DNA of 64,000 nt from Candidatus Lustribacter sp. GTDB lineage: Bacteria; Vulcanimicrobiota; Vulcanimicrobiia; Vulcanimicrobiales; Vulcanimicrobiaceae. Below are positions 14,128 through 22,587 of this stretch, in pieces (position 1 is the first letter of the stretch; each line of letters opens with the position of its first letter). The notes beneath the pieces are model-generated. The model did not search any database. It worked only from the letters and a program-made list of their open reading frames with translations, and was not told the DNA's origin. The stretch covers positions 320,001 through 384,000 of the forward strand of contig OZ255842.1 of the NCBI GenBank assembly GCA_965277805.1, given 5' to 3'. The translations under genes were made by a program, and so were the position numbers.

Positions 14128-14594
14128 GTCCGTGTATCCGCTCGTAACTGCCGCAAGAGTGCGGAGCGTTGCGCGCTCGTCGTGGTGTCGGGGTTCGATG
14201 GCCGCGGTGCCGCGCGCACGGCGCGGGTTCGCTCGTCGAGCACCTGCGTGAGGTAGGCGAGCGCCGCAGGCAGCGACGGTGCGCCGTCGTCGAATTGCCA
14301 CGTCGGGTCGATCGAGGTGCGCAAGTAATACCAGCCCTCGCGCTCGAGATGCGCGATGTCGGCGTTCGCATCGTCGCGCAGGCGGTCGCGCGCGAATCCG
14401 CAGATCAGCGCGCACTCGTTCTCGCCTTCGTTGAAGAGATCCAGGGCGAACACGAGATCGCGCTTCCCTTGATACGCGAGCGGCAAATCGCTGAAGATCA
14501 GCGCCACCGGATTGGGCAGCGCCGCGTTGAGCGCGGCATCGAAGGCATGTTCCAGCTCGGCTGTCCCGCGCTCGATGGCGTCGAGCTGCGTCAT
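14124..14594 (-). CDS. Hypothetical protein, translationally coupled between the dioxygenase and LLM genes
   Basis: Overlaps both neighbours by 4 nt; globular composition (MTQLDAIERG...). Confidence 0.6.
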   Translation of the reverse strand: MTQLDAIERGTAELEHAFDAALNAALPNPVALIFSDLPLAYQGKRDLVFALDLFNEGENECALICGFARDRLRDDANADIAHLEREGWYYLRTSIDPTWQFDDGAPSLPAALAYLTQVLDERTRAVRAAPRPSNPDTTTSAQRSALLRQLRADTRT

Positions 14595-15382
14595 CCCAGC
14601 GTGATGGAGAGCATGCCCAGCCCATTGATGCCCGAGCCGTTGCCGCCGACGAGGATCGCCGGCTGCTCGTCGCTGCGCTGCAGCCCGAGGACCGAGAGAA
14701 ACGGCAGGTAGTGGTCGGGGGTCGGGATCGCCAGCTGCGCGTCGGGCCCGAGCTTCTCGTAGGCGATGAGGGCGGCATGATCGCCCGCGTCGAGACGTCG
14801 CATGAGATCGTCGCTGAAGCGCTGCTCCCAGCCGTCCGGTTCGGCCGGCCACGGATTGCGCCCGATCTCCTGATTGTGGATCACGTTGCCGCTGCCCACG
14901 ATGAGGACGCCTTCATCGCGCAAGGGCGCCAAGCGTGCGGCGAGTTCATAATGGAAGGACGGCGGCTGGGTTCGGTCGAGACTCAGTTCCACAACCGGCA
15001 CGTCGGCCGCGGGATAGAAGTTGGCGAGGACGTTCCAGGCGCCGTGATCATAGCCCCAATGCTCGTCCAGGGTGACGGGCACGGGGGCGAGCAGGTCGCG
15101 TACCCGCCGGGCCAGTGCCGGATCGCCGGGCGCCGGGTACTCAAAGGACGAGACCGCGCCCTTGAAGCTGATGAAGTCGTGGTTCGTCCGCGGGCGGGTA
15201 CCGGCGGTTACCCGGGTACCCGAGGTGTACCAATGCGCCGATATCAGGAGTACGGCCCGTGGCCGGACCCGGACCCCGAAGGCGCGCCAGGCATCGGTGA
15301 AGCGATTGCCGCCGAGGGCGTTCTGGGGGCTGCCGTGCCCGATGAAGGCGACGGGAAGGCGAGTTGACCGGTCCACTTCCAA
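14591..15382 (-). CDS. ygiD: DODA/YgiD-type extradiol ring-cleavage dioxygenase
   Basis: FIGHGSP, ISAHW, YDHGAW, GSGNVIHN, PTPDHYLP; start TTG 15382 (SD GGGAG) or GTG 15376. Confidence 0.85.
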   Translation of the reverse strand: MEVDRSTRLPVAFIGHGSPQNALGGNRFTDAWRAFGVRVRPRAVLLISAHWYTSGTRVTAGTRPRTNHDFISFKGAVSSFEYPAPGDPALARRVRDLLAPVPVTLDEHWGYDHGAWNVLANFYPAADVPVVELSLDRTQPPSFHYELAARLAPLRDEGVLIVGSGNVIHNQEIGRNPWPAEPDGWEQRFSDDLMRRLDAGDHAALIAYEKLGPDAQLAIPTPDHYLPFLSVLGLQRSDEQPAILVGGNGSGINGLGMLSITLG

Positions 15383-15393
15383 CGTGGTATGCT
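15364..15393 (+). promoter_or_regulatory. Sigma70-type promoter of the cys leader
   Basis: TTGACC-N18-TATGCT with extended -10 TG; the leader ATG follows 8 nt later (leaderless geometry). Confidence 0.7.
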
Positions 15394-15401
15394 CCCAAGC
15401 G

Positions 15402-15482
15402 ATGCGCTGTCCTTGTTGTTGTCCCGTTTTCGAGCCCACCTGTTGCCTTCCGGCAATCGGGCGGGGTGCTGCACTGGGCTGA
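15402..15482 (+). CDS. Cysteine-rich leader (attenuator) peptide MRCPCCCPVFEPTCCLPAIGRGAALG
   Basis: 6 Cys in the first 15 codons, 5 of them TGT; directly upstream of a terminator and the sulfate-assimilation operon. Confidence 0.85.
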   Translation: MRCPCCCPVFEPTCCLPAIGRGAALG

Positions 15483-15505
15483 GGGTGAACCCCCGAGACC
15501 AGCGT

Positions 15506-15539
15506 GCGACCCTCGCCTGAGCGGGGGTCGCTTTCATTT
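15506..15539 (+). terminator. Intrinsic terminator (attenuator) before cysH
   Basis: Stem GCGACCCTCGC-ctga-GCGGGGGTCGC (one G:U pair) followed by TTTCATTT. Confidence 0.8.
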
Positions 15540-15584
15540 CCAGCCAGCTCGGCACCCGAACGTACGGGGCCAGGAGTCCGACCC

Positions 15585-16256
15585 ATTTCCACCGATATCG
15601 CCGCCGCCGCCGGCCAAGCGAACGAAATCATCCGCCGCACGATCGAAGCCTATCCCGGCCGCACCACGCTGTCGTGCTCCTTCGGCGGTCCGTCGGGGAT
15701 GGTGCTGCTCGACCTGGCGTTGCGGATCGAACCGCAGCTCAACGTGTTCGTGGTCGACACCGAACTGTTGTTCCCGGAGACCTACGCGCTGATCGAGCGC
15801 GTCGAACGGCGTTACGGCATCAAGGTCGAGCGCGTGCACCCCGAGCAGACCGTTGAGGAACAAAACGCAACGCACGGTGACGCGCTCTGGAAGCGCGATC
15901 CCGACGCGTGCTGCGATCTGCGCAAGGTCGAGCCGCTGCGCGCGTATTTGCAACACTTCGACGCCTGGCTCACGGCCGTTCGGCGCGATCAGAGCGATAC
16001 GCGCACCGACCTTCCCATTCAGGCGTGGGATGAGAACGCCCAGATCGTGAAAGTGGCGCCGCTTGCGGAGTGGACCGAAGCCGACGTGTGGGGGTACGTG
16101 CAAGAGCACGACGTTCCGGTGAACACGCTGCACTTCGAAGGCTATCCGAGCATCGGCTGCATGCACTGCACGCGCCGCGTCGCCCCGGGCGAACACGCGC
16201 GTGCCGGCCGTTGGGCCGAGTTCGACAAAACGGAGTGCGGCATCCATGTCGCCTGA
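15585..16256 (+). CDS. cysH: APS/PAPS reductase (Fe-S type), probable ATT start
   Basis: SFG, DTELLFPETY, CCDLRK, SIGCMHC, ECGIH; SD AGGAG 8 nt before the in-frame ATT. Confidence 0.9.
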   Translation: MSTDIAAAAGQANEIIRRTIEAYPGRTTLSCSFGGPSGMVLLDLALRIEPQLNVFVVDTELLFPETYALIERVERRYGIKVERVHPEQTVEEQNATHGDALWKRDPDACCDLRKVEPLRAYLQHFDAWLTAVRRDQSDTRTDLPIQAWDENAQIVKVAPLAEWTEADVWGYVQEHDVPVNTLHFEGYPSIGCMHCTRRVAPGEHARAGRWAEFDKTECGIHVA

Positions 16257-17256
16257 GTACGCGGCCCCTACGGGTATCGCGCTCGAGAGCGTGAGCAAAC
16301 ACTTCGGCACCGTGCGCGCGGTCGACGGCGTTACGTTCGACGTTGCTCCGGGCTCGCTCACCGCGATTCTCGGGCCGTCCGGCTGTGGCAAGTCGACGCT
16401 CTTGCGTTTGCTGGCCGGCTTCGAACACGTCGATGCGGGTCACGTCACGCTCGGCGGCCGCGACGTGACGGACGTGCCCCTGCGCGAACGCAACATCGGG
16501 TTCGTCTTCCAAGGTTACGCGCTCTTTCCGCACTTGACGGTGGCGGAGAACATCGCGTTTCCGCTCGACGTGCGCAAGGCTGACCGCGCCAAGACGCGCG
16601 CCCGCGTTGCCGAGCTGCTGGATCTGGTGCAATTGCCGGGTTATGAGAAGCGCCGTCCGCACGAACTCTCCGGCGGTCAGCGCCAACGCGTCGCGCTCGC
16701 GCGGGCGCTGGCGGCGCAACCTGCCATCCTCTTGCTCGACGAACCGTTTGCGGCGCTCGACGTGCACGTGCGGCGCGATCTGCGTGCGTGGCTGCGCCGG
16801 CTGCACGACGACGTGCACGTGACCACGCTGCTCGTGACGCACGACGCCGACGAAGCGATGGAGATCGCGGATGCGCTCGTGCTGATGAACGCCGGCCGCG
16901 TGGAACAAGCCGGCAGCCCGCTCGACCTCTACGATCGTCCGGTGTCGCCGTTCGCATTGCACTTTCTCGGCCCGGCGAACATCATCGCCTCCGGCGGCAA
17001 CCCGCAGTACGTGCGGCCGCACGAGCTGCAGGTCGATTCGCATGCGTTCGACGGCTCGCAGCCGGCCCGCGTGTCGCGCATCGTCGATCTCGGGTCGCGG
17101 CGGCGGATCGACCTCGTCCTACCCGGCGGAGATCCGGTAAGCGCCGAAATCCGCGCGCCGTACAACGGTTTGAGCGCGGTGCGCGACGGCGATACCGTGC
17201 ACTTTGCGCTCGTTCATCAGCGGTCGTTCTCACCGACCTCACCTGAAAGGCCCTAG
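16246..17256 (+). CDS. cysA: Sulfate ABC transporter ATPase
   Basis: GPSGCGKS, LSGGQRQR, LLDEPF; operon context. Confidence 0.9.
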   Translation: MSPEYAAPTGIALESVSKHFGTVRAVDGVTFDVAPGSLTAILGPSGCGKSTLLRLLAGFEHVDAGHVTLGGRDVTDVPLRERNIGFVFQGYALFPHLTVAENIAFPLDVRKADRAKTRARVAELLDLVQLPGYEKRRPHELSGGQRQRVALARALAAQPAILLLDEPFAALDVHVRRDLRAWLRRLHDDVHVTTLLVTHDADEAMEIADALVLMNAGRVEQAGSPLDLYDRPVSPFALHFLGPANIIASGGNPQYVRPHELQVDSHAFDGSQPARVSRIVDLGSRRRIDLVLPGGDPVSAEIRAPYNGLSAVRDGDTVHFALVHQRSFSPTSPERP

Positions 17257-17258
17257 CG

Positions 17259-18257
17259 TTGCGTTTCCTCCGCTCCATCGCCGCCGCCGTCTTCGTGGCG
17301 GGCGTAACGCTGCACGCCGCATCGGCCGCAACGCTGCTCAACGTATCGTACGATCCGACGCGCGAGCTGTATGCCGAGTACAACACGCTCTTCGCGAAGT
17401 ACTGGAAGCAGAAGACGGGCGAGGACGTGACGATCCAGCAGTCGCACAACAGTTCCGGCGCGCAGGCGCGTGCGGTCATCAGCGGCCTCGAAGCCGATGT
17501 CGTGACTCTGGCGCTCGCGGGCGACATCGATGCGATCTCGCAGAACGCGAAGTTGCTGCCGCCCGATTGGGCCAAGCGGCTGCCGCAAAATTCGACGCCG
17601 TACACGTCGACGATCGTGTTCCTCGTGCGCAAGGGCAACCCGAAGCACATCCATGACTGGAACGATCTGACGAAGCCCGGCGTCGGCGTCATCACCCCCA
17701 ACCCGAAGACCAGCGGCGCGGCGCGCTGGATCGTTCTGGCCGCGTATTCGTACGGCATGAAGAAGAACCAGAACAGCCAGGCCAAGACGCGCGCGCTGAT
17801 CGGCGCGATCTACAAGAACGCGCTCGTCCTCGATTCCGCCTCGCGCGCCTCGACGCTGACGTTCACCGAGCGCGGCCTCGGCGACGTGCTCGTCTCGTGG
17901 GAAAACGAAGCGATCCTGGCACAGCGCGATCATCCCAAAGATTACGAACTCGTCGTGCCTTCGGTGAGCGTGCTGGCCGAACCGCCGGTGGCGTGGATCG
18001 ACGTCAACGTCGCCAAACACCATACCGAGGCCGTCGCGAAAGCCTATCTCGAGTTTCTCTACACGCCGCAGGCGCAGCGCCTGGAGTGCAAGTGGGGCTA
18101 TCGCCCGCGCGATACCTCGGTGCTCGGGCACTGCGGCACATCGTTCCCGCGCACCGACCTGACGACGGTTGCGAGCTTCGGCGGCTGGCCGAACGCCAAC
18201 AAGGTGTTCTTCGCTGACGGCGCCCTGTTCGACCAGGTCTTCACCGCTCCGAAATGA
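17259..18257 (+). CDS. sbp: Sulfate-binding protein
   Basis: LLNVSYDPTRELY, NPKTSGAAR, WENEA. Confidence 0.93.
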   Translation: MRFLRSIAAAVFVAGVTLHAASAATLLNVSYDPTRELYAEYNTLFAKYWKQKTGEDVTIQQSHNSSGAQARAVISGLEADVVTLALAGDIDAISQNAKLLPPDWAKRLPQNSTPYTSTIVFLVRKGNPKHIHDWNDLTKPGVGVITPNPKTSGAARWIVLAAYSYGMKKNQNSQAKTRALIGAIYKNALVLDSASRASTLTFTERGLGDVLVSWENEAILAQRDHPKDYELVVPSVSVLAEPPVAWIDVNVAKHHTEAVAKAYLEFLYTPQAQRLECKWGYRPRDTSVLGHCGTSFPRTDLTTVASFGGWPNANKVFFADGALFDQVFTAPK

Positions 18258-18264
18258 CCTCTCC

Positions 18265-19074
18265 ATGATTCCCGGACGCGGTGTTGCTCTAGCGACGACG
18301 ATGACGATCGTAGCGATCGTCGTCGTCGTTCCGCTTTCCGCGCTCGTGCTCTCGCTGCACGGGATCACGCCGGCAGGCTTCATCGCGACCGCGTTTTCGC
18401 CGGGAGCGCTCGCCGCGTACCGGCTCAGCTTCGGCGCGGCGATCCTCGCGTCGGCGATCGACGTCGTCGCCGGCGGTGCGATCGCGTTCGTGCTCGTGCG
18501 CTATCCCTCGGCCTGGATGCGCCCGTTCGACGCGCTCGTCGACGTGCCGTTCGCGTTGCCGCCGGCCGTTACCGGGATCACCTTGGCCGAGTTGTACGGG
18601 CAGCACGGCTGGATCGGCTCGTGGCTCGGCGCGCACGGCATCCAAATCGCTTATACGCCGGCCGGCGTGCTGCTCGCGCTCACGTTCGTCGGGCTGCCGT
18701 TCGTCGTGCGCACCGTGCAGCCGGTGATCGCCACCTTGCCGCGCGAGTACTCGCAAGCGGCAGCCTCGCTCGGCGCGCGGCCGTTCACGATCTTCCGCCG
18801 CATTACGCTGCCGCTGGTCGCGCCGTCGTTTCTCACCGGCTTCGCGCTGTCGCTCGCGCGCACGCTGGGCGAATACGGCTCGGTCATCTTCATCGCCGGC
18901 AACATGCCGGGCAAGACCGAGGTCATTCCGCTGATCGTGATCACGCGGCTCGAGCAATACGATTTCGCCGGCGCGGCGGCGGTGGCGCTGGTGTCGCTGT
19001 TCGTCTCGTTCGTCATGCTGTATGCAATCAACGCGCTGCAGCGCCGAATCGTCGACGTGCGGAGCGCGGCATGA
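18265..19074 (+). CDS. cysT: Sulfate ABC permease
   Basis: DVPFALP, GEYGSVIFIAGNMPGKTE. Confidence 0.9.
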   Translation: MIPGRGVALATTMTIVAIVVVVPLSALVLSLHGITPAGFIATAFSPGALAAYRLSFGAAILASAIDVVAGGAIAFVLVRYPSAWMRPFDALVDVPFALPPAVTGITLAELYGQHGWIGSWLGAHGIQIAYTPAGVLLALTFVGLPFVVRTVQPVIATLPREYSQAAASLGARPFTIFRRITLPLVAPSFLTGFALSLARTLGEYGSVIFIAGNMPGKTEVIPLIVITRLEQYDFAGAAAVALVSLFVSFVMLYAINALQRRIVDVRSAA

Positions 19075-19952
19075 CCGCGATCAACCTCGAACCGCTGGTG
19101 ACGCCGGTGCGCACGCGCGGGCACGCGGCCCGCTTGCATCTGTGGGAGCGCGCGGCGATCGGTGCCGTGGCGCTGTTGCTCGGCTTCTTCGTGTTCATAC
19201 CGCTGTGCTCGATCGTGTACGAAGCACTGCGCGCCGGTTTGCCGATGGCGGCGGCGACCTTCGCGGACCCGTACGCGCAGTCGGCGATCTGGCTCTCGGC
19301 GATTACCGCGGTGGTCACGATCGCGTGCAACGGTGCGTTCGGCATCCTCGCGGGCTGGACGCTCACCAAGTACTCGTTTCCCGGCAAAGCGCTGCTGCTC
19401 GCGATCATCGACTTGCCGTTGACGATCTCGCCGGTCGTCGCCGGGCTCGCGCTGCTGCTGGTGTTCGGGACGCGCTGGCCGGTCGGTGCGTGGTTCGAGG
19501 CGCACGGTATGCAGATCGCCTTCGCGCCGCCCGGGATTATCCTCGCGACGATCTTCGTCACGTTCCCGTACGTCGCGCGCGAAACGATCGCGCTGATGAG
19601 CGAGACGGGCCGCGAACTCGAGGAGGCGGCCCTTGGCCTCGGCGCAACGCTCTGGCAAACGTTCGCGCGCGTCACGTTCCCGCGGGCGCGTTGGGCCATC
19701 CTCAACGGCGTGCTGCTCTGCAACGCGCGGGCGCTCGGTGAGTTCGGCGCCGTCTCGGTCATCTCGGGCAACATCCGCGGCTTGACCAATACCGTCCCGT
19801 TGCACATCGACGTGCTCTACAATAGCTACAACCTCGTCGGCGCGTTCACATTGGCCGGCGCGCTGGCGCTCGTGACGATCACCCTCACCTTCATCCGTAC
19901 CACCATCGACGCCCGCATGCATCAGCGGACCAACATAGAAACGAGAAACTGA
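19071..19952 (+). CDS. cysW: Sulfate ABC permease
   Basis: DLPLTISPVVAG, LCNARALGEFGAVSV. Confidence 0.9.
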   Translation: MTAINLEPLVTPVRTRGHAARLHLWERAAIGAVALLLGFFVFIPLCSIVYEALRAGLPMAAATFADPYAQSAIWLSAITAVVTIACNGAFGILAGWTLTKYSFPGKALLLAIIDLPLTISPVVAGLALLLVFGTRWPVGAWFEAHGMQIAFAPPGIILATIFVTFPYVARETIALMSETGRELEEAALGLGATLWQTFARVTFPRARWAILNGVLLCNARALGEFGAVSVISGNIRGLTNTVPLHIDVLYNSYNLVGAFTLAGALALVTITLTFIRTTIDARMHQRTNIETRN

Positions 19953-19954
19953 CC

Positions 19955-20749
19955 GTGGATTCCCTCGATCGGCTGGAAGCCGAAACCATCACGATCTTGC
20001 GCGAGGCCTACCGGGCCAGCAGTAAGCCCTGCATGCTGTGGTCGATCGGCAAAGATTCGACCGCGCTCTTGTGGATGGCGCGCAAAGCCTTCCTGGGCCG
20101 CGTTCCGTTTCCGATGGTCTTGCTCGAAACGTTCATGGAATTGCCCGAGGTGTACGAATTCCGCGATCGTCTGATCGACGAGTGGCAACTCGAGTACTTC
20201 GCGCAGATCTGTCCGCCGGAGAGCGAAGTCGATCAGACGCTGCCGCCGGCAACGCGCGCCGCCGCACGCAAGACCGAAGGCCTGCGCACGATGCTGCGCG
20301 AGCAGAAGTTCGACGCCGTGATGGTCGGCATCCGGCGTGACGAGCAGGCGATGCGCGCGAAGGAACGCGTGTTTAGCCCGCGCCGCATCGACGGCACGTG
20401 GGACGTGAAAGAGCAGCCCCCGGAGTTCTGGGGCTACTACACGACCAGCGTGCCGGACGGCGCGCACCTGCGCGTGCATCCGCTCCTGTCGTGGACCGAA
20501 CTCGACATTTGGGAGTATACGCTGCGCGAGAACATCCCGTACGTCCCGCTCTACCTCGCGCGCGACGGCAAACGCTATCGCTCGCTGGGCGAGAAGAACA
20601 TCACCGTGCCGATCGACAGCAACGCATCGACGATCGAAGAGATCATCGCCGAGCTGCGAGCGACGCGCGTGCCCGAACGGGCCGGCCGCACGATGGATAA
20701 CGAGAGCGAAGCCTCGTTCGAACGCCTGCGCGCGGGAGGGTACATGTAA
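19955..20749 (+). CDS. cysD: Sulfate adenylyltransferase subunit 2
   Basis: [29 protein letters not shown]. Confidence 0.93.
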
Positions 20750-22587
20750 TGGACCTGCGCGTAGCGATTACCGGTCACGTCGACCATGGCAAGTCCACGC
20801 TCATCGGGCGTCTGCTCTACGATACCGGCAGCTTGGCCGACGGCAAGGCCGAAGAAATCATCGCTTCGAGCGAACGCCGCGGCCTCGCGGTCGAGTGGTC
20901 GTTCGCGGTCGATGCGGCGCAAGAAGAGCGCGATCAAGCGATCACGATCGAAACGACCCGCGTTTGGATGCACTACGGCGGGCGGCGCATCGTGATCATC
21001 GATACGCCCGGCCATCGCGAGTTCATCCGTAACATGATGAGCGGCGCGGCCGACGCCGACGCCGGCATCCTCGTGATCGATGCGCTGGAAGGGATCGCCG
21101 ATCAAACCTATCGTCATGCTTACCTGCTGCGTTTGCTCGACGTACCGGAGATCATCGTCGCGGTCAACAAGATCGACGCGGTCGAAAATCCGGCCGAGCG
21201 TTTCGCGCAGATCAGCCGCGACATCCGCTCGGTGCTCGAGACCGCGGGCAAACCGTTGCGCGCGATCGTGCCGCTCTCGGCCCGCGACGGCGACAACGTC
21301 GTCAATCGTTCGGAGCGTACCGCATGGTACACCGGCCCGACCCTCATCGACGTTCTCGTCTCGCTGCATCCGGTCGCGCCGCTGGCCGACCGCCCGCTGC
21401 GCTTCGAAGTGGCCGACGTCTACCGGTTTAGCGACGAAGAGCGCATCTCGGTCGGCAACGTGGTAGCCGGCACGATCGCGCCCGGCGATCGCGTGCGCAT
21501 CGCGCCCAGCGGCGCAACCACGCGCGTGCGCGGCATCAAGCGTTGGCCCGACGATCCCTCGCCCGCGCTCGCGGGCCAAGCCGTCGGCCTCACCTTCGAT
21601 GATCCCGTGTTCATCGATCGCGGCGACATCGTCACTCACGCCGACCGTCCGCCGCTCGTCGCGACCACGTCGTTCGACGGCGTCTTCTTCTGGCTTTCGG
21701 AGGCGCCGCCGCGGGTCGGCGAGACGCTGTCGATCAAGATCGGCCGCGCTGAAGTTGCGGTGACGATCATCGGCATCGACGAGACGATCGATCTAGGCAT
21801 TCTCGACAAAGTTCAGCCCGATGAATCATCCAAGCATTCGGCGTTCGCCCTGCGCCTGCGCGCGGCGCGCACGGTTGCGGCCGAACCGGGCGCGCGCTGT
21901 GTGCTGCTGCGCACGGGCGAAGTCGTCGGCGGGGGCAAGCTTTCCACCGTCGAGCCGGTCAGCTCGCAGCGATCGGATAACCTCGTACCGCAAGGCCATC
22001 TGATCTCGCGCGAAACGCGCGCGCATCGCAACGGCTATCGCGGTTTGGTCGCCTGGCTCACCGGTTTGCCGGGCAGCGGCAAGTCGACGATTGCGATGGC
22101 GGTCGAACGCGAGCTGTTTGCGCGCGGCTATTTCGTCTACGTGCTTGACGGCGACAACGTGCGGACCGGGCTCAATCGCGATCTCGGTTTCACGCGCGAA
22201 GGACGTCAGGAAAACATCCGGCGCATCGGCGAGGTGGCGGCGCTGTTCGCCGACGCCGGCGCGATCGTCATCACCGGCACGATCTCGCCGCACGCAGCCG
22301 ATCGTGCCGCCGCGCGCGCGGCGGCGCCCGGCTCGTTTCACGAGATCTACGTGCGCGCGAGCGTCGATACGTGCGCGACCCGCGACGTGAAGGGTCACTA
22401 CGCGAAAGCGCGCGCCGGCGAGCTGCCCGACTTCACCGGCGTTTCAGCGCCCTACGAAGAGCCCGAGCACCCCGACTTGCTGGTGGACACTAACGCCTCA
22501 ACGATCGAAGCCAGCGTGTCCTCCGTGGTCGAGTACCTGATCCGCGCCGCCACCGCTCCCGAGGTACTCCTCAGCTACTCGATTTAA
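20749..22587 (+). CDS. cysNC: Bifunctional sulfate adenylyltransferase subunit 1 / APS kinase
   Basis: [18 protein letters not shown] GTPase motifs, then [10 protein letters not shown] and LDGDNVR APS kinase motifs. Confidence 0.93.

Follow-up and report, generated by a model that had tools for sequence, protein, structure and literature searches.

A cysteine-codon leader peptide coupled to an intrinsic terminator: a putative attenuator of a sulfate-assimilation operon in Candidatus Lustribacter

Introduction

How the genes for sulfate uptake and activation are adjusted to the supply of cysteine is the question raised by a short intergenic interval of Candidatus Lustribacter sp., an Eremiobacterota-like soil bacterium, contained in a 64,000-nucleotide stretch of its genome (GenBank assembly GCA_965277805.1, contig OZ255842.1, positions 320,001–384,000; hereafter the window). 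Textbooks place cysteine and sulfur assimilation under protein regulators, and none of the classical attenuators that work through a leader peptide (trp, his, leu, thr, ilv and phe) is known to respond to cysteine. At 15364–15539 of the window, between two divergent genes, a promoter is followed by a small open reading frame (sORF) rich in Cys codons and by an intrinsic terminator, beyond which a sulfate-assimilation operon begins with cysH. A first-pass annotation had read this arrangement as a cysteine-sensing leader-peptide attenuator with an intrinsic terminator, and the comparative sequence analysis reported here supports that reading. The coupling of a Cys-codon leader to a terminator is well supported, and the element is most probably a classical ribosome-dependent attenuator of transcription, with a leaderless transcript and charged tRNA-Cys as the sensed signal. 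This interpretation is based on the conservation of the design across genera with otherwise unrelated peptides, on its conserved geometry, on the finding of two more such elements at sulfur-related loci elsewhere in this genome, and on sister leaders for threonine and the branched-chain amino acids. A conserved Cys-codon leader with an intrinsic terminator on sulfate uptake and activation fills the gap in the list of classical attenuators.

Promoter, leader peptide and terminator

A promoter scan of 14800–16200 returned one promoter-like site, against 0.2 expected from shuffled sequences. It consists of a −35 hexamer TTGACC (15364–15369, plus strand), an 18-nt spacer and an extended −10 element (15385–15393, plus strand), in which TG (15385–15386) and one further base precede the hexamer TATGCT (15388–15393). 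Both elements are invariant in six sequences of the genus. The ATG at 15402 follows 8 nt past the −10 hexamer, leaving no room for a Shine–Dalgarno sequence, and opens an sORF of 26 codons plus the stop TGA at 15480 (15402–15482, plus strand), which is conserved in relatives and appears to be leaderless or nearly so.

The sORF contains six Cys codons in two clusters. Codons 3, 5, 6 and 7 (15408–15422) are all TGT, with the triple TGT invariant in the genus, and codons 14–15 (15441–15446) form a TGT TGC pair that would be the last sensing position, 36 nt before the stop. Thus, Cys occupies 6 of 26 codons in the sORF compared with 0.77% of codons in 654 long open reading frames (ORFs) of the same genome (one contig, 5.53 Mb, 64% G+C). 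In these long ORFs, TGT accounts for only 548 of 3504 Cys codons (15.6%), whereas five of the six Cys codons in the sORF are TGT. A single tRNA-Cys gene, with the anticodon GCA, was found in the genome.

Downstream of the sORF, a hairpin scan and folding identified an intrinsic terminator stem-loop at 15506–15531 (plus strand), with 11 pairs, nine of them G-C, and a loop of 4 nt, followed by the T-tract TTTCATTT (15532–15539; six T in eight positions). The terminator folded at −23.0 kcal/mol (z −3.65), and none of 200 shuffled sequences was as good. Because the upstream gene is divergent, this hairpin terminates no other transcript. The promoter scan found no second promoter-like site between the terminator and cysH. 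The promoter, the ATG lacking a Shine–Dalgarno sequence, the Cys-rich 26-residue peptide with its genomically disfavoured TGT codons, and the 11-bp hairpin with its T-tract had all been described by the first-pass annotation, and each was recovered here.

The promoter spacer itself showed unusual conservation. Its first 10 bases, counted from the −35 hexamer, do not vary among the six genus sequences, even in two loci (L003, L004) where no divergent coding sequence overlaps it, and it holds a short inverted repeat (CCAC, 7 nt, GTGG), retained in a more distant relative (L007). A regulatory protein may bind here, or the segment may represent a second −35 element of opposite orientation.

Conservation and geometry of the leader

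A first search covering 41 genomes of the same family, order and class yielded 12 loci with a full-length CysH. Ten of these carried the same design upstream of cysH (all but L009 and L010), namely, a −10-like hexamer 6–9 nt before an ATG, a short ORF with 3–6 Cys codons, and a G+C-rich hairpin with a T-tract before cysH. A broader sample of the phylum (151 genomes) added 15 cysH loci, of which seven, one from another family, had an sORF with at least three Cys codons and a terminator. One of the seven (L112) fails the strict −10 pattern and has TATAAA. Two further loci in this sample had a 2-Cys sORF with a terminator, and the remaining six had nothing comparable.

Among 80 cysH loci from a collection of named genomes, the element was present in three of the four Eremiobacterota-labelled records with sufficient upstream sequence. 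Two of these three (L019 and L043) appear to be the same genomes as two already counted (G156 and G016), with identical sORFs. Two further records with this label, one of them labelled Elarobacter (L023), were left out, their upstream sequence being cut at the contig end. Of the 74 loci from other or unlabelled phyla, only one, labelled Candidatus Limnocylindria (L026), carried the element; in seven other loci of the collection, Cys-containing ORFs were found without a terminator, and these were taken as chance occurrences.

The Limnocylindria locus (Chloroflexota; L026, 1820–1990) has a −10 hexamer, a 19-codon sORF with four Cys codons, a strong terminator, AGGAGG and an ATC start of cysH. 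Its CysH is 59% identical to that of the window. Horizontal transfer, convergent evolution or a binning error might each explain why the design is present in this record.

Between genera, the peptides were unrelated except for their Cys codons. An alignment of the six genus sequences showed invariant promoter hexamers, ATG, triple TGT, TGT–TGC pair, the segment following this pair, and terminator arm, whereas the six codons between the two Cys clusters varied freely. Within the genus, the peptide is also conserved in its C-terminal half, which coincides with the RNA that can pair with the terminator arm. Fixed Cys codons combined with free codons between the clusters fit a role as regulatory codons and RNA pairing rather than a functional peptide.

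The geometry was examined in 14 leaders, 13 preceding cysH and one from a second locus of this genome. The sORFs are 19–27 codons long and begin 6–9 nt past the −10 hexamer in the 13 leaders other than the present one, and no Shine–Dalgarno sequence is possible before the sORF start in the leaders examined. The last Cys codon lies 24–39 nt before the stop, and exactly 36 nt before it in nine of the 14, which include three lineages of unrelated sequence. A terminator is present in all 14 and begins 22–40 nt past the stop; the region between stop and terminator is short and not conserved between genera. The preference for TGT was also general, with 53 TGT and 16 TGC codons across the 14 sORFs.

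Predicted antiterminator pairing and the proposed mechanism

Attenuation would require an upstream strand that competes for the 5′ arm of the terminator. The best candidate is an in-frame segment, codons 19–24 of the sORF (15457–15472, plus strand), which pairs with 15504–15520 in constrained folds. Its duplex with the terminator 5′ arm, computed over 15455–15472, reached −22.4 kcal/mol, compared with −24.5 kcal/mol for the true 3′ arm. In minimum-free-energy folds, it is preceded by a small hairpin of six pairs with a loop of 4 nt (15442–15457, plus strand), whose 5′ arm includes the second Cys pair; in the genus alignment, the stem bases of this hairpin are conserved and the loop varies.

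The effect of a translating ribosome was modelled by masking the RNA beneath it, from a point 15 nt upstream of the first base in the A-site codon to one 14 nt downstream of that base; the folded transcript stopped short of the terminator 3′ arm. While any of codons 1–15 occupied the A site, the terminator 5′ arm was paired with upstream RNA with a probability of 0.81. Pairing dropped past codon 15, rose again to 0.54–0.76 at codons 20–22, and was 0.05 from codon 23 to the stop, so that a ribosome at the stop abolished the modelled antiterminator. This profile indicates that the last Cys codon is the last stall that leaves the antiterminator fully free. The first-pass annotation had proposed folding with and without a ribosome footprint; stalled and stop positions differed before the 3′ arm exists (0.81 versus 0.05) but not in most full-length folds. 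Full-leader equilibrium folding with ribosome footprints was dropped because the terminator was dominant in most stalled states and the folds did not discriminate.

Across the 14 leaders, a stall at the last Cys codon was modelled to leave the arm paired with a probability of 0.66–1.00 in every case. The complementarity between the segment following the Cys codons and the terminator arm exceeded that in dinucleotide shuffles when nine distinct leaders were combined (Fisher p = 4.8e-5; taking the weakest representative of the genus, 1.5e-4). In four relatives (L002, L006, L007 and L012), the naked RNA already formed the antiterminator with a probability of 0.81–0.99, and the trp-like state in which a lack of translation gives full termination is thus not general in these leaders. 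An anti-antiterminator of the 1:2 type was predicted in some relatives and not in others.

Based on these features, the following sequence of events is proposed. Transcription would start at, or 1–2 nt before, the ATG at 15402, and leaderless translation of the sORF would begin immediately upon its emergence. With ample cysteine, the ribosome would pass all six Cys codons and reach the UGA at 15480, covering roughly 15465–15494. In this position, it would keep 15457–15472 and the internal hairpin around the stop codon from holding the terminator 5′ arm; hairpin 15506–15531 and its U-tract would then form, and RNA polymerase would stop before cysH. When cysteine is short, the ribosome would stall at the Cys codons with its leading edge near 15458, and the freed 15457–15472 would pair with 15504–15520 before the 3′ arm exists. 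Read-through would then reach cysH-cysA-sbp-cysT-cysW-cysD-cysNC. The preference for TGT, which the single tRNA-Cys(GCA) would read by wobble, might sharpen such a sensor.

The first-pass annotation had assigned the antiterminator to a different strand, 15477–15486 (plus strand), which overlaps the stop. Its complementarity to 15509–15517 does exist, with nine pairs, one bulge and a duplex energy of −17.6 kcal/mol, and a ribosome at the stop would cover it fully. The same attenuator operating through this strand would also account for the return of modelled arm pairing with the A site at codons 20–22, where only 15477–15486 is still free, and a G-rich run just past the stop in two genus members (L004 and L005) could pair with the same arm. 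The pairing is nevertheless weaker than that of 15457–15472, and in the best folds 15477–15486 lies in an internal hairpin that contains the stop codon, between the two antiterminator strands. Furthermore, when 15457–15472 was masked, the best fold left the terminator arm unpaired with upstream RNA (−16.9 versus −32.5 kcal/mol). We therefore regard this assignment as rather unlikely, and consider with moderate confidence that 15457–15472 is the better antiterminator, a reasonable but provisional assignment. Because a ribosome at the stop covers both candidate strands at least in part, the attenuation logic stands with either.

Several observations weigh against the attenuator interpretation as a whole. 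The T-tract is interrupted in this copy, and the element is missing from two of the 12 family-level loci and six of the 15 loci of the phylum sample, which indicates that it is not obligatory. Five of 13 distinct leaders (L003, L004, L008, L019 and L026) were not individually better than shuffles (p 0.18 to 0.58), and in several relatives a ribosome at the stop still left the arm partly paired (0.45–0.70). As a control, the 5′ arms of 300 random terminator-like hairpins of this genome were paired with the 47 nt upstream of them. The mean pairing probability was 0.62, and 20% of the controls reached 0.81; the control duplexes were at −19.0 kcal/mol or better in 10% of cases and reached −22.4 kcal/mol in 4.3%. 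Since arm pairing is this common, the finding that all 14 leaders reached 0.66 or more was not counted as strong evidence.

Two further difficulties concern the helices themselves. The terminated conformer (−39.6 kcal/mol) is about 7 kcal/mol more stable at equilibrium than the antiterminated one (−32.5 kcal/mol), and full-length equilibrium folds kept the terminator in most stalled states. Read-through would therefore have to be kinetic, with the antiterminator forming first, as is likewise said of the enterobacterial trp leader. In addition, compensatory changes were sought in either helix among the six genus sequences, and no pair was changed on both sides. The first-pass annotation had proposed looking in relatives for a conserved Cys-rich sORF and covarying stems; the sORF was found, whereas covariation is not detectable within the genus because both strands are nearly invariant. 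Pairing is retained across the genus alignment (86% and 97%, compared with 39–58% in slid controls), although one of the sequences in this alignment had itself served to define the structures.

Comparison with known cysteine leaders

Leader peptides rich in Cys codons have been reported before, and the claim of novelty in the first-pass annotation was too strong in this respect. By comparative genomics, short ORFs with Cys-codon runs were predicted before cysteine-synthesis operons of Actinobacteria (Seliverstov et al. 2005; PMC1262725). They share with the present leader the run of Cys codons in a short ORF; however, they have no conserved terminator hairpin, an absence that those authors stressed, considering Rho-dependent termination, whereas the terminator is conserved here. 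In Mycobacterium smegmatis, leaderless polycysteine sORFs were shown to exert a translational response to cysteine (Canestrari et al. 2020; 10.1101/834739). That study coined the term "ribulon" and stated that cysteine attenuation mediated by upstream ORFs (uORFs) had not been described. The mycobacterial ribulon resembles the present case in that sORFs with Cys runs precede several cysteine- and sulfur-related operons of one genome, which would thereby share a response sensed by the ribosome; three such loci are present here. It differs in that the mycobacterial model element masks the Shine–Dalgarno sequence of the next gene without a terminator or antiterminator, while here a terminator is present and the Shine–Dalgarno sequence is unmasked. 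There is also no sequence relationship between that system, which belongs to another phylum, and this leader.

A further arrangement is uORFC-8-2, found upstream of cysS in Rhodobacterales, for which read-through was predicted when Cys-tRNA is scarce (Brewer et al. 2021; PMC8632094). Its tandem Cys codons, usually at positions 14 and 15, are followed by an intrinsic terminator, and codons 14–15 are also Cys codons in the sORF described here. uORFC-8-2 has two Cys codons, with UGC said to be dominant, and is predicted to control a tRNA synthetase gene in an alphaproteobacterial order; the present sORF has six, with TGT dominant, and the downstream gene is cysH. Masking of an antiterminator by a ribosome at the stop codon, the logic proposed here, has been put forward for ilvB1 of Mycobacterium tuberculosis and branched-chain amino acids in a study from 2026 (PMC13236596). 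Taken together, these published Cys cases are either translational in mycobacteria or predictions that lack a terminator or concern cysS.

The present leader shares with the classical enterobacterial attenuators (trp, his, leu, thr and ilv) an ORF rich in codons for the end product, an intrinsic terminator and, as a prediction, a mutually exclusive antiterminator whose formation would depend on the position of the ribosome. It differs from them in that cysteine is sensed, the target is a sulfate uptake and activation operon, the sORF has no Shine–Dalgarno sequence and is apparently leaderless, and the lineage is Eremiobacterota-like. It would thus combine classical attenuator logic with the kind of leaderless polycysteine sORF known from mycobacteria, on sulfate assimilation. 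No terminator-type Cys leader on a sulfate-assimilation operon was found in the literature searched, outside which subscription journals largely lay. A loosely framed search found no regulatory work on Eremiobacterota, which says little; the leader offers a first glimpse of gene regulation in this group.

Alternative explanations

Among explanations other than ribosome-controlled termination, control of the terminator by another factor (for instance a protein, a small RNA, Rho or a fold that binds a ligand), with the Cys codons incidental or secondary, survives best, but it is still very unlikely. The unusually conserved promoter spacer may mark a protein-binding site and hence an additional layer of transcriptional control. 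Against control through the terminator, an Rfam scan of 14500–16500 at E up to 10 gave no match to the leader, its three hits all lying elsewhere and far below gathering scores, and the region between stop and terminator is short and unconserved between genera, as described above. Enrichment in Cys is seen repeatedly and independently, and sORFs biased towards Thr or towards Val, Ile and Leu precede the matching pathways in this genome.

A translational attenuator of the mycobacterial type, in which the sORF masks the ribosome-binding site of cysH until a stalled ribosome exposes it, and the hairpin does not serve as a regulated terminator, is an even poorer fit. It has a precedent, since the leaderless polycysteine sORFs of mycobacteria are reported to act on translation (10.1101/834739), and a weak local hairpin can take in part of the AGGAG motif that precedes cysH. 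This Shine–Dalgarno motif (15572–15576, plus strand) was read directly from the sequence and is kept 6–8 nt before the start in relatives. It lies 33 nt beyond the T-tract and was unpaired with the sORF in the folds, and a translational mechanism is thus not indicated here. The local hairpin was no better than shuffles (z 0.28), and its sequence is deleted in a genus member (L003). Furthermore, a G+C-rich stem with a T-tract accompanies all 14 leaders and is not required for translational masking.

That the product is instead a functional Cys-rich micropeptide, or that the short terminated transcript is a small RNA, either with a terminator of its own and with cysH not governed by stalling, seems highly improbable. 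A trans activity of such small proteins has been raised as a possibility (10.1101/834739), the trpL leader peptide is reported to act in trans, and genus members share the C-terminal half of the peptide. However, that half coincides with the RNA predicted to pair with the terminator arm, genera have nothing but the Cys codons in common, the peptides at the three Cys loci of this genome are unrelated, no second promoter-like site separates the terminator from cysH, and the downstream genes are always sulfur-related.

The start codon of cysH

The 5′ end of cysH has a bearing on how the leader is annotated. An ATT or ATC was the apparent start in nine of 13 loci (15572–15587 in the window; L002–L006, L008, L026 and L076), lying 6–8 nt past AGGAG and 29–31 codons before the SFGG motif of the protein; it is ATC in L005, L008 and L026. 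L003 and L026 lack any ATG, GTG or TTG between the upstream in-frame stop and the SFGG motif. The homologous position is ATG or TTG in L007 and L019, and L011 and L012 have a GTG further upstream. In the window, the GTG at 15504 is the one canonical start codon that lies in frame before the essential cysH motif. This GTG was rejected as the cysH start because L003 and L004 have it in another frame and because the stretch from terminator to Shine–Dalgarno sequence is of variable length. The real start is probably the non-canonical ATT at 15585. An annotation of cysH from the GTG at 15504 would bury the terminator within a coding sequence, and the sORFs are currently unannotated.

Other leaders in the same genome

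A scan of the 5.53-Mb genome for a −10-like hexamer 5–10 nt before a short ORF, with a strong terminator within 60 nt past its stop, examined 1112 terminator-like hairpins and gave 16 candidates. Sorted by the residue most enriched in each, they were headed by three Cys-rich, two Thr-rich and one Val/Ile/Leu-rich sORF. Besides the leader in the window, the Cys-rich sORFs are located at genome positions 2212573–2212647 (plus strand) and 2212493–2212428 (minus strand), each with its own terminator. They are driven by back-to-back promoters, each with TTGACA, an 18-nt spacer and a TA...T hexamer preceded by TG. One precedes genes for an SsuA-family binding protein, an SsuC-like permease and an ATPase, and the other a gene for a flavoprotein of 557 residues in the superfamily of fumarate reductase, aspartate oxidase and APS reductase alpha.

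Both additional Cys leaders were conserved in two of three orthologous loci of the genus and absent from four paralogous loci. No orthologue of the ssuA-like gene was found at E 1e-40 in 60 other genomes of the family, and the conservation of its leader could thus be judged only within the genus. A 60-residue piece of the ssuA-like protein gave no hit against NCBIfam, whereas the whole protein matched the SsuA family. The −35 hexamers of the back-to-back promoters form a perfect inverted repeat around ACCGGT (2212428–2212700; locus L018, 371–700).

The other biased sORFs, likewise apparently leaderless and followed by terminators, lie at 395602–395685, 476753–476830 and 4459255–4459326 (L099, L100 and L101, respectively). 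The first is Thr-rich and precedes a homoserine dehydrogenase gene, the second is Val/Ile/Leu-rich and precedes ilvC/ilvB, and the third is Thr/Ile-rich, with neighbouring ORFs that gave no NCBIfam match. The Thr and Val/Ile/Leu sORFs look like threonine and branched-chain attenuators of the same design. Leaderless leader peptides with terminators thus appear to be a general device in this organism, and cysteine appears to be sensed at three or more sulfur-related operons.

A more far-reaching, and tentative, reading is that of a cysteine ribulon in the almost uncultured phylum Eremiobacterota, acting by intrinsic-terminator attenuation on leaderless transcripts, with at least three independent Cys leaders in one genome, threonine and branched-chain leaders of the same grammar, and cysH additionally throttled by an obligatory AUU or AUC start. 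If true, this ribulon would cover sulfate assimilation, a sulfonate-type importer and a flavoprotein operon, and the costly sulfate-reduction branch would be under two layers of control, namely, attenuation and the AUU/AUC start. Sulfur assimilation would then have its first described case of leader-peptide control through a terminator, and leaderless leader peptides would be a general regulatory language outside Actinobacteria.

Genomic context and traces of expression

The operon downstream of the leader comprises seven tightly packed plus-strand genes, and the first-pass reading of its composition was confirmed by NCBIfam. cysH, a member of the APS/PAPS reductase family (NF002537, 260.7 bits), extends over 15585–16256 with the start discussed above. 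It is followed at 16201–22587 (maximal ORFs, which abut or overlap) by cysA, a sulfate-binding protein gene, cysT, cysW, cysD and cysN fused to an APS-kinase domain. On the minus strand, the divergent neighbour (14591–15376) encodes a LigB-type protein similar to 4,5-DOPA dioxygenase (NF007914, matched from residue 92 of the maximal ORF). Its probable start, a GTG at 15376, lies inside the cys promoter spacer; its own promoter would thus have to overlap the sORF region on the opposite strand, and the scan of 14800–16200 found no promoter-like site for it in that overlap.

Evidence from public sequencing runs was examined as assembled contigs. Four runs with one organism label (X2, X3, X4 and X5) carry a near-identical stretch; three of them (X2, X3 and X5) were aligned with the window. 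They probably include the source sample and provide no independent support. A 227-nt contig from a soil metatranscriptome matches 15483–15659 with nine differences in 177 letters and derives from a relative. It spans the T-tract into cysH, which is a weak hint compatible with natural read-through transcripts, and carry-over of DNA is possible.

In the named genome collection, the records closest to the CysH of the window were labelled Candidatus Eremiobacteraeota, Elarobacter, Velthaea and Vulcanimicrobiota, followed by Acidobacteriota, Chloroflexota, Nitrospirota and others. In the CysH alignment (window 15585–16256), a CC pair and a CxxC motif are invariant, which we take to be the iron–sulfur ligands of APS-type reductases. 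Despite these APS-type motifs, the same operon encodes an APS-kinase domain fused to CysN (20749–22587).

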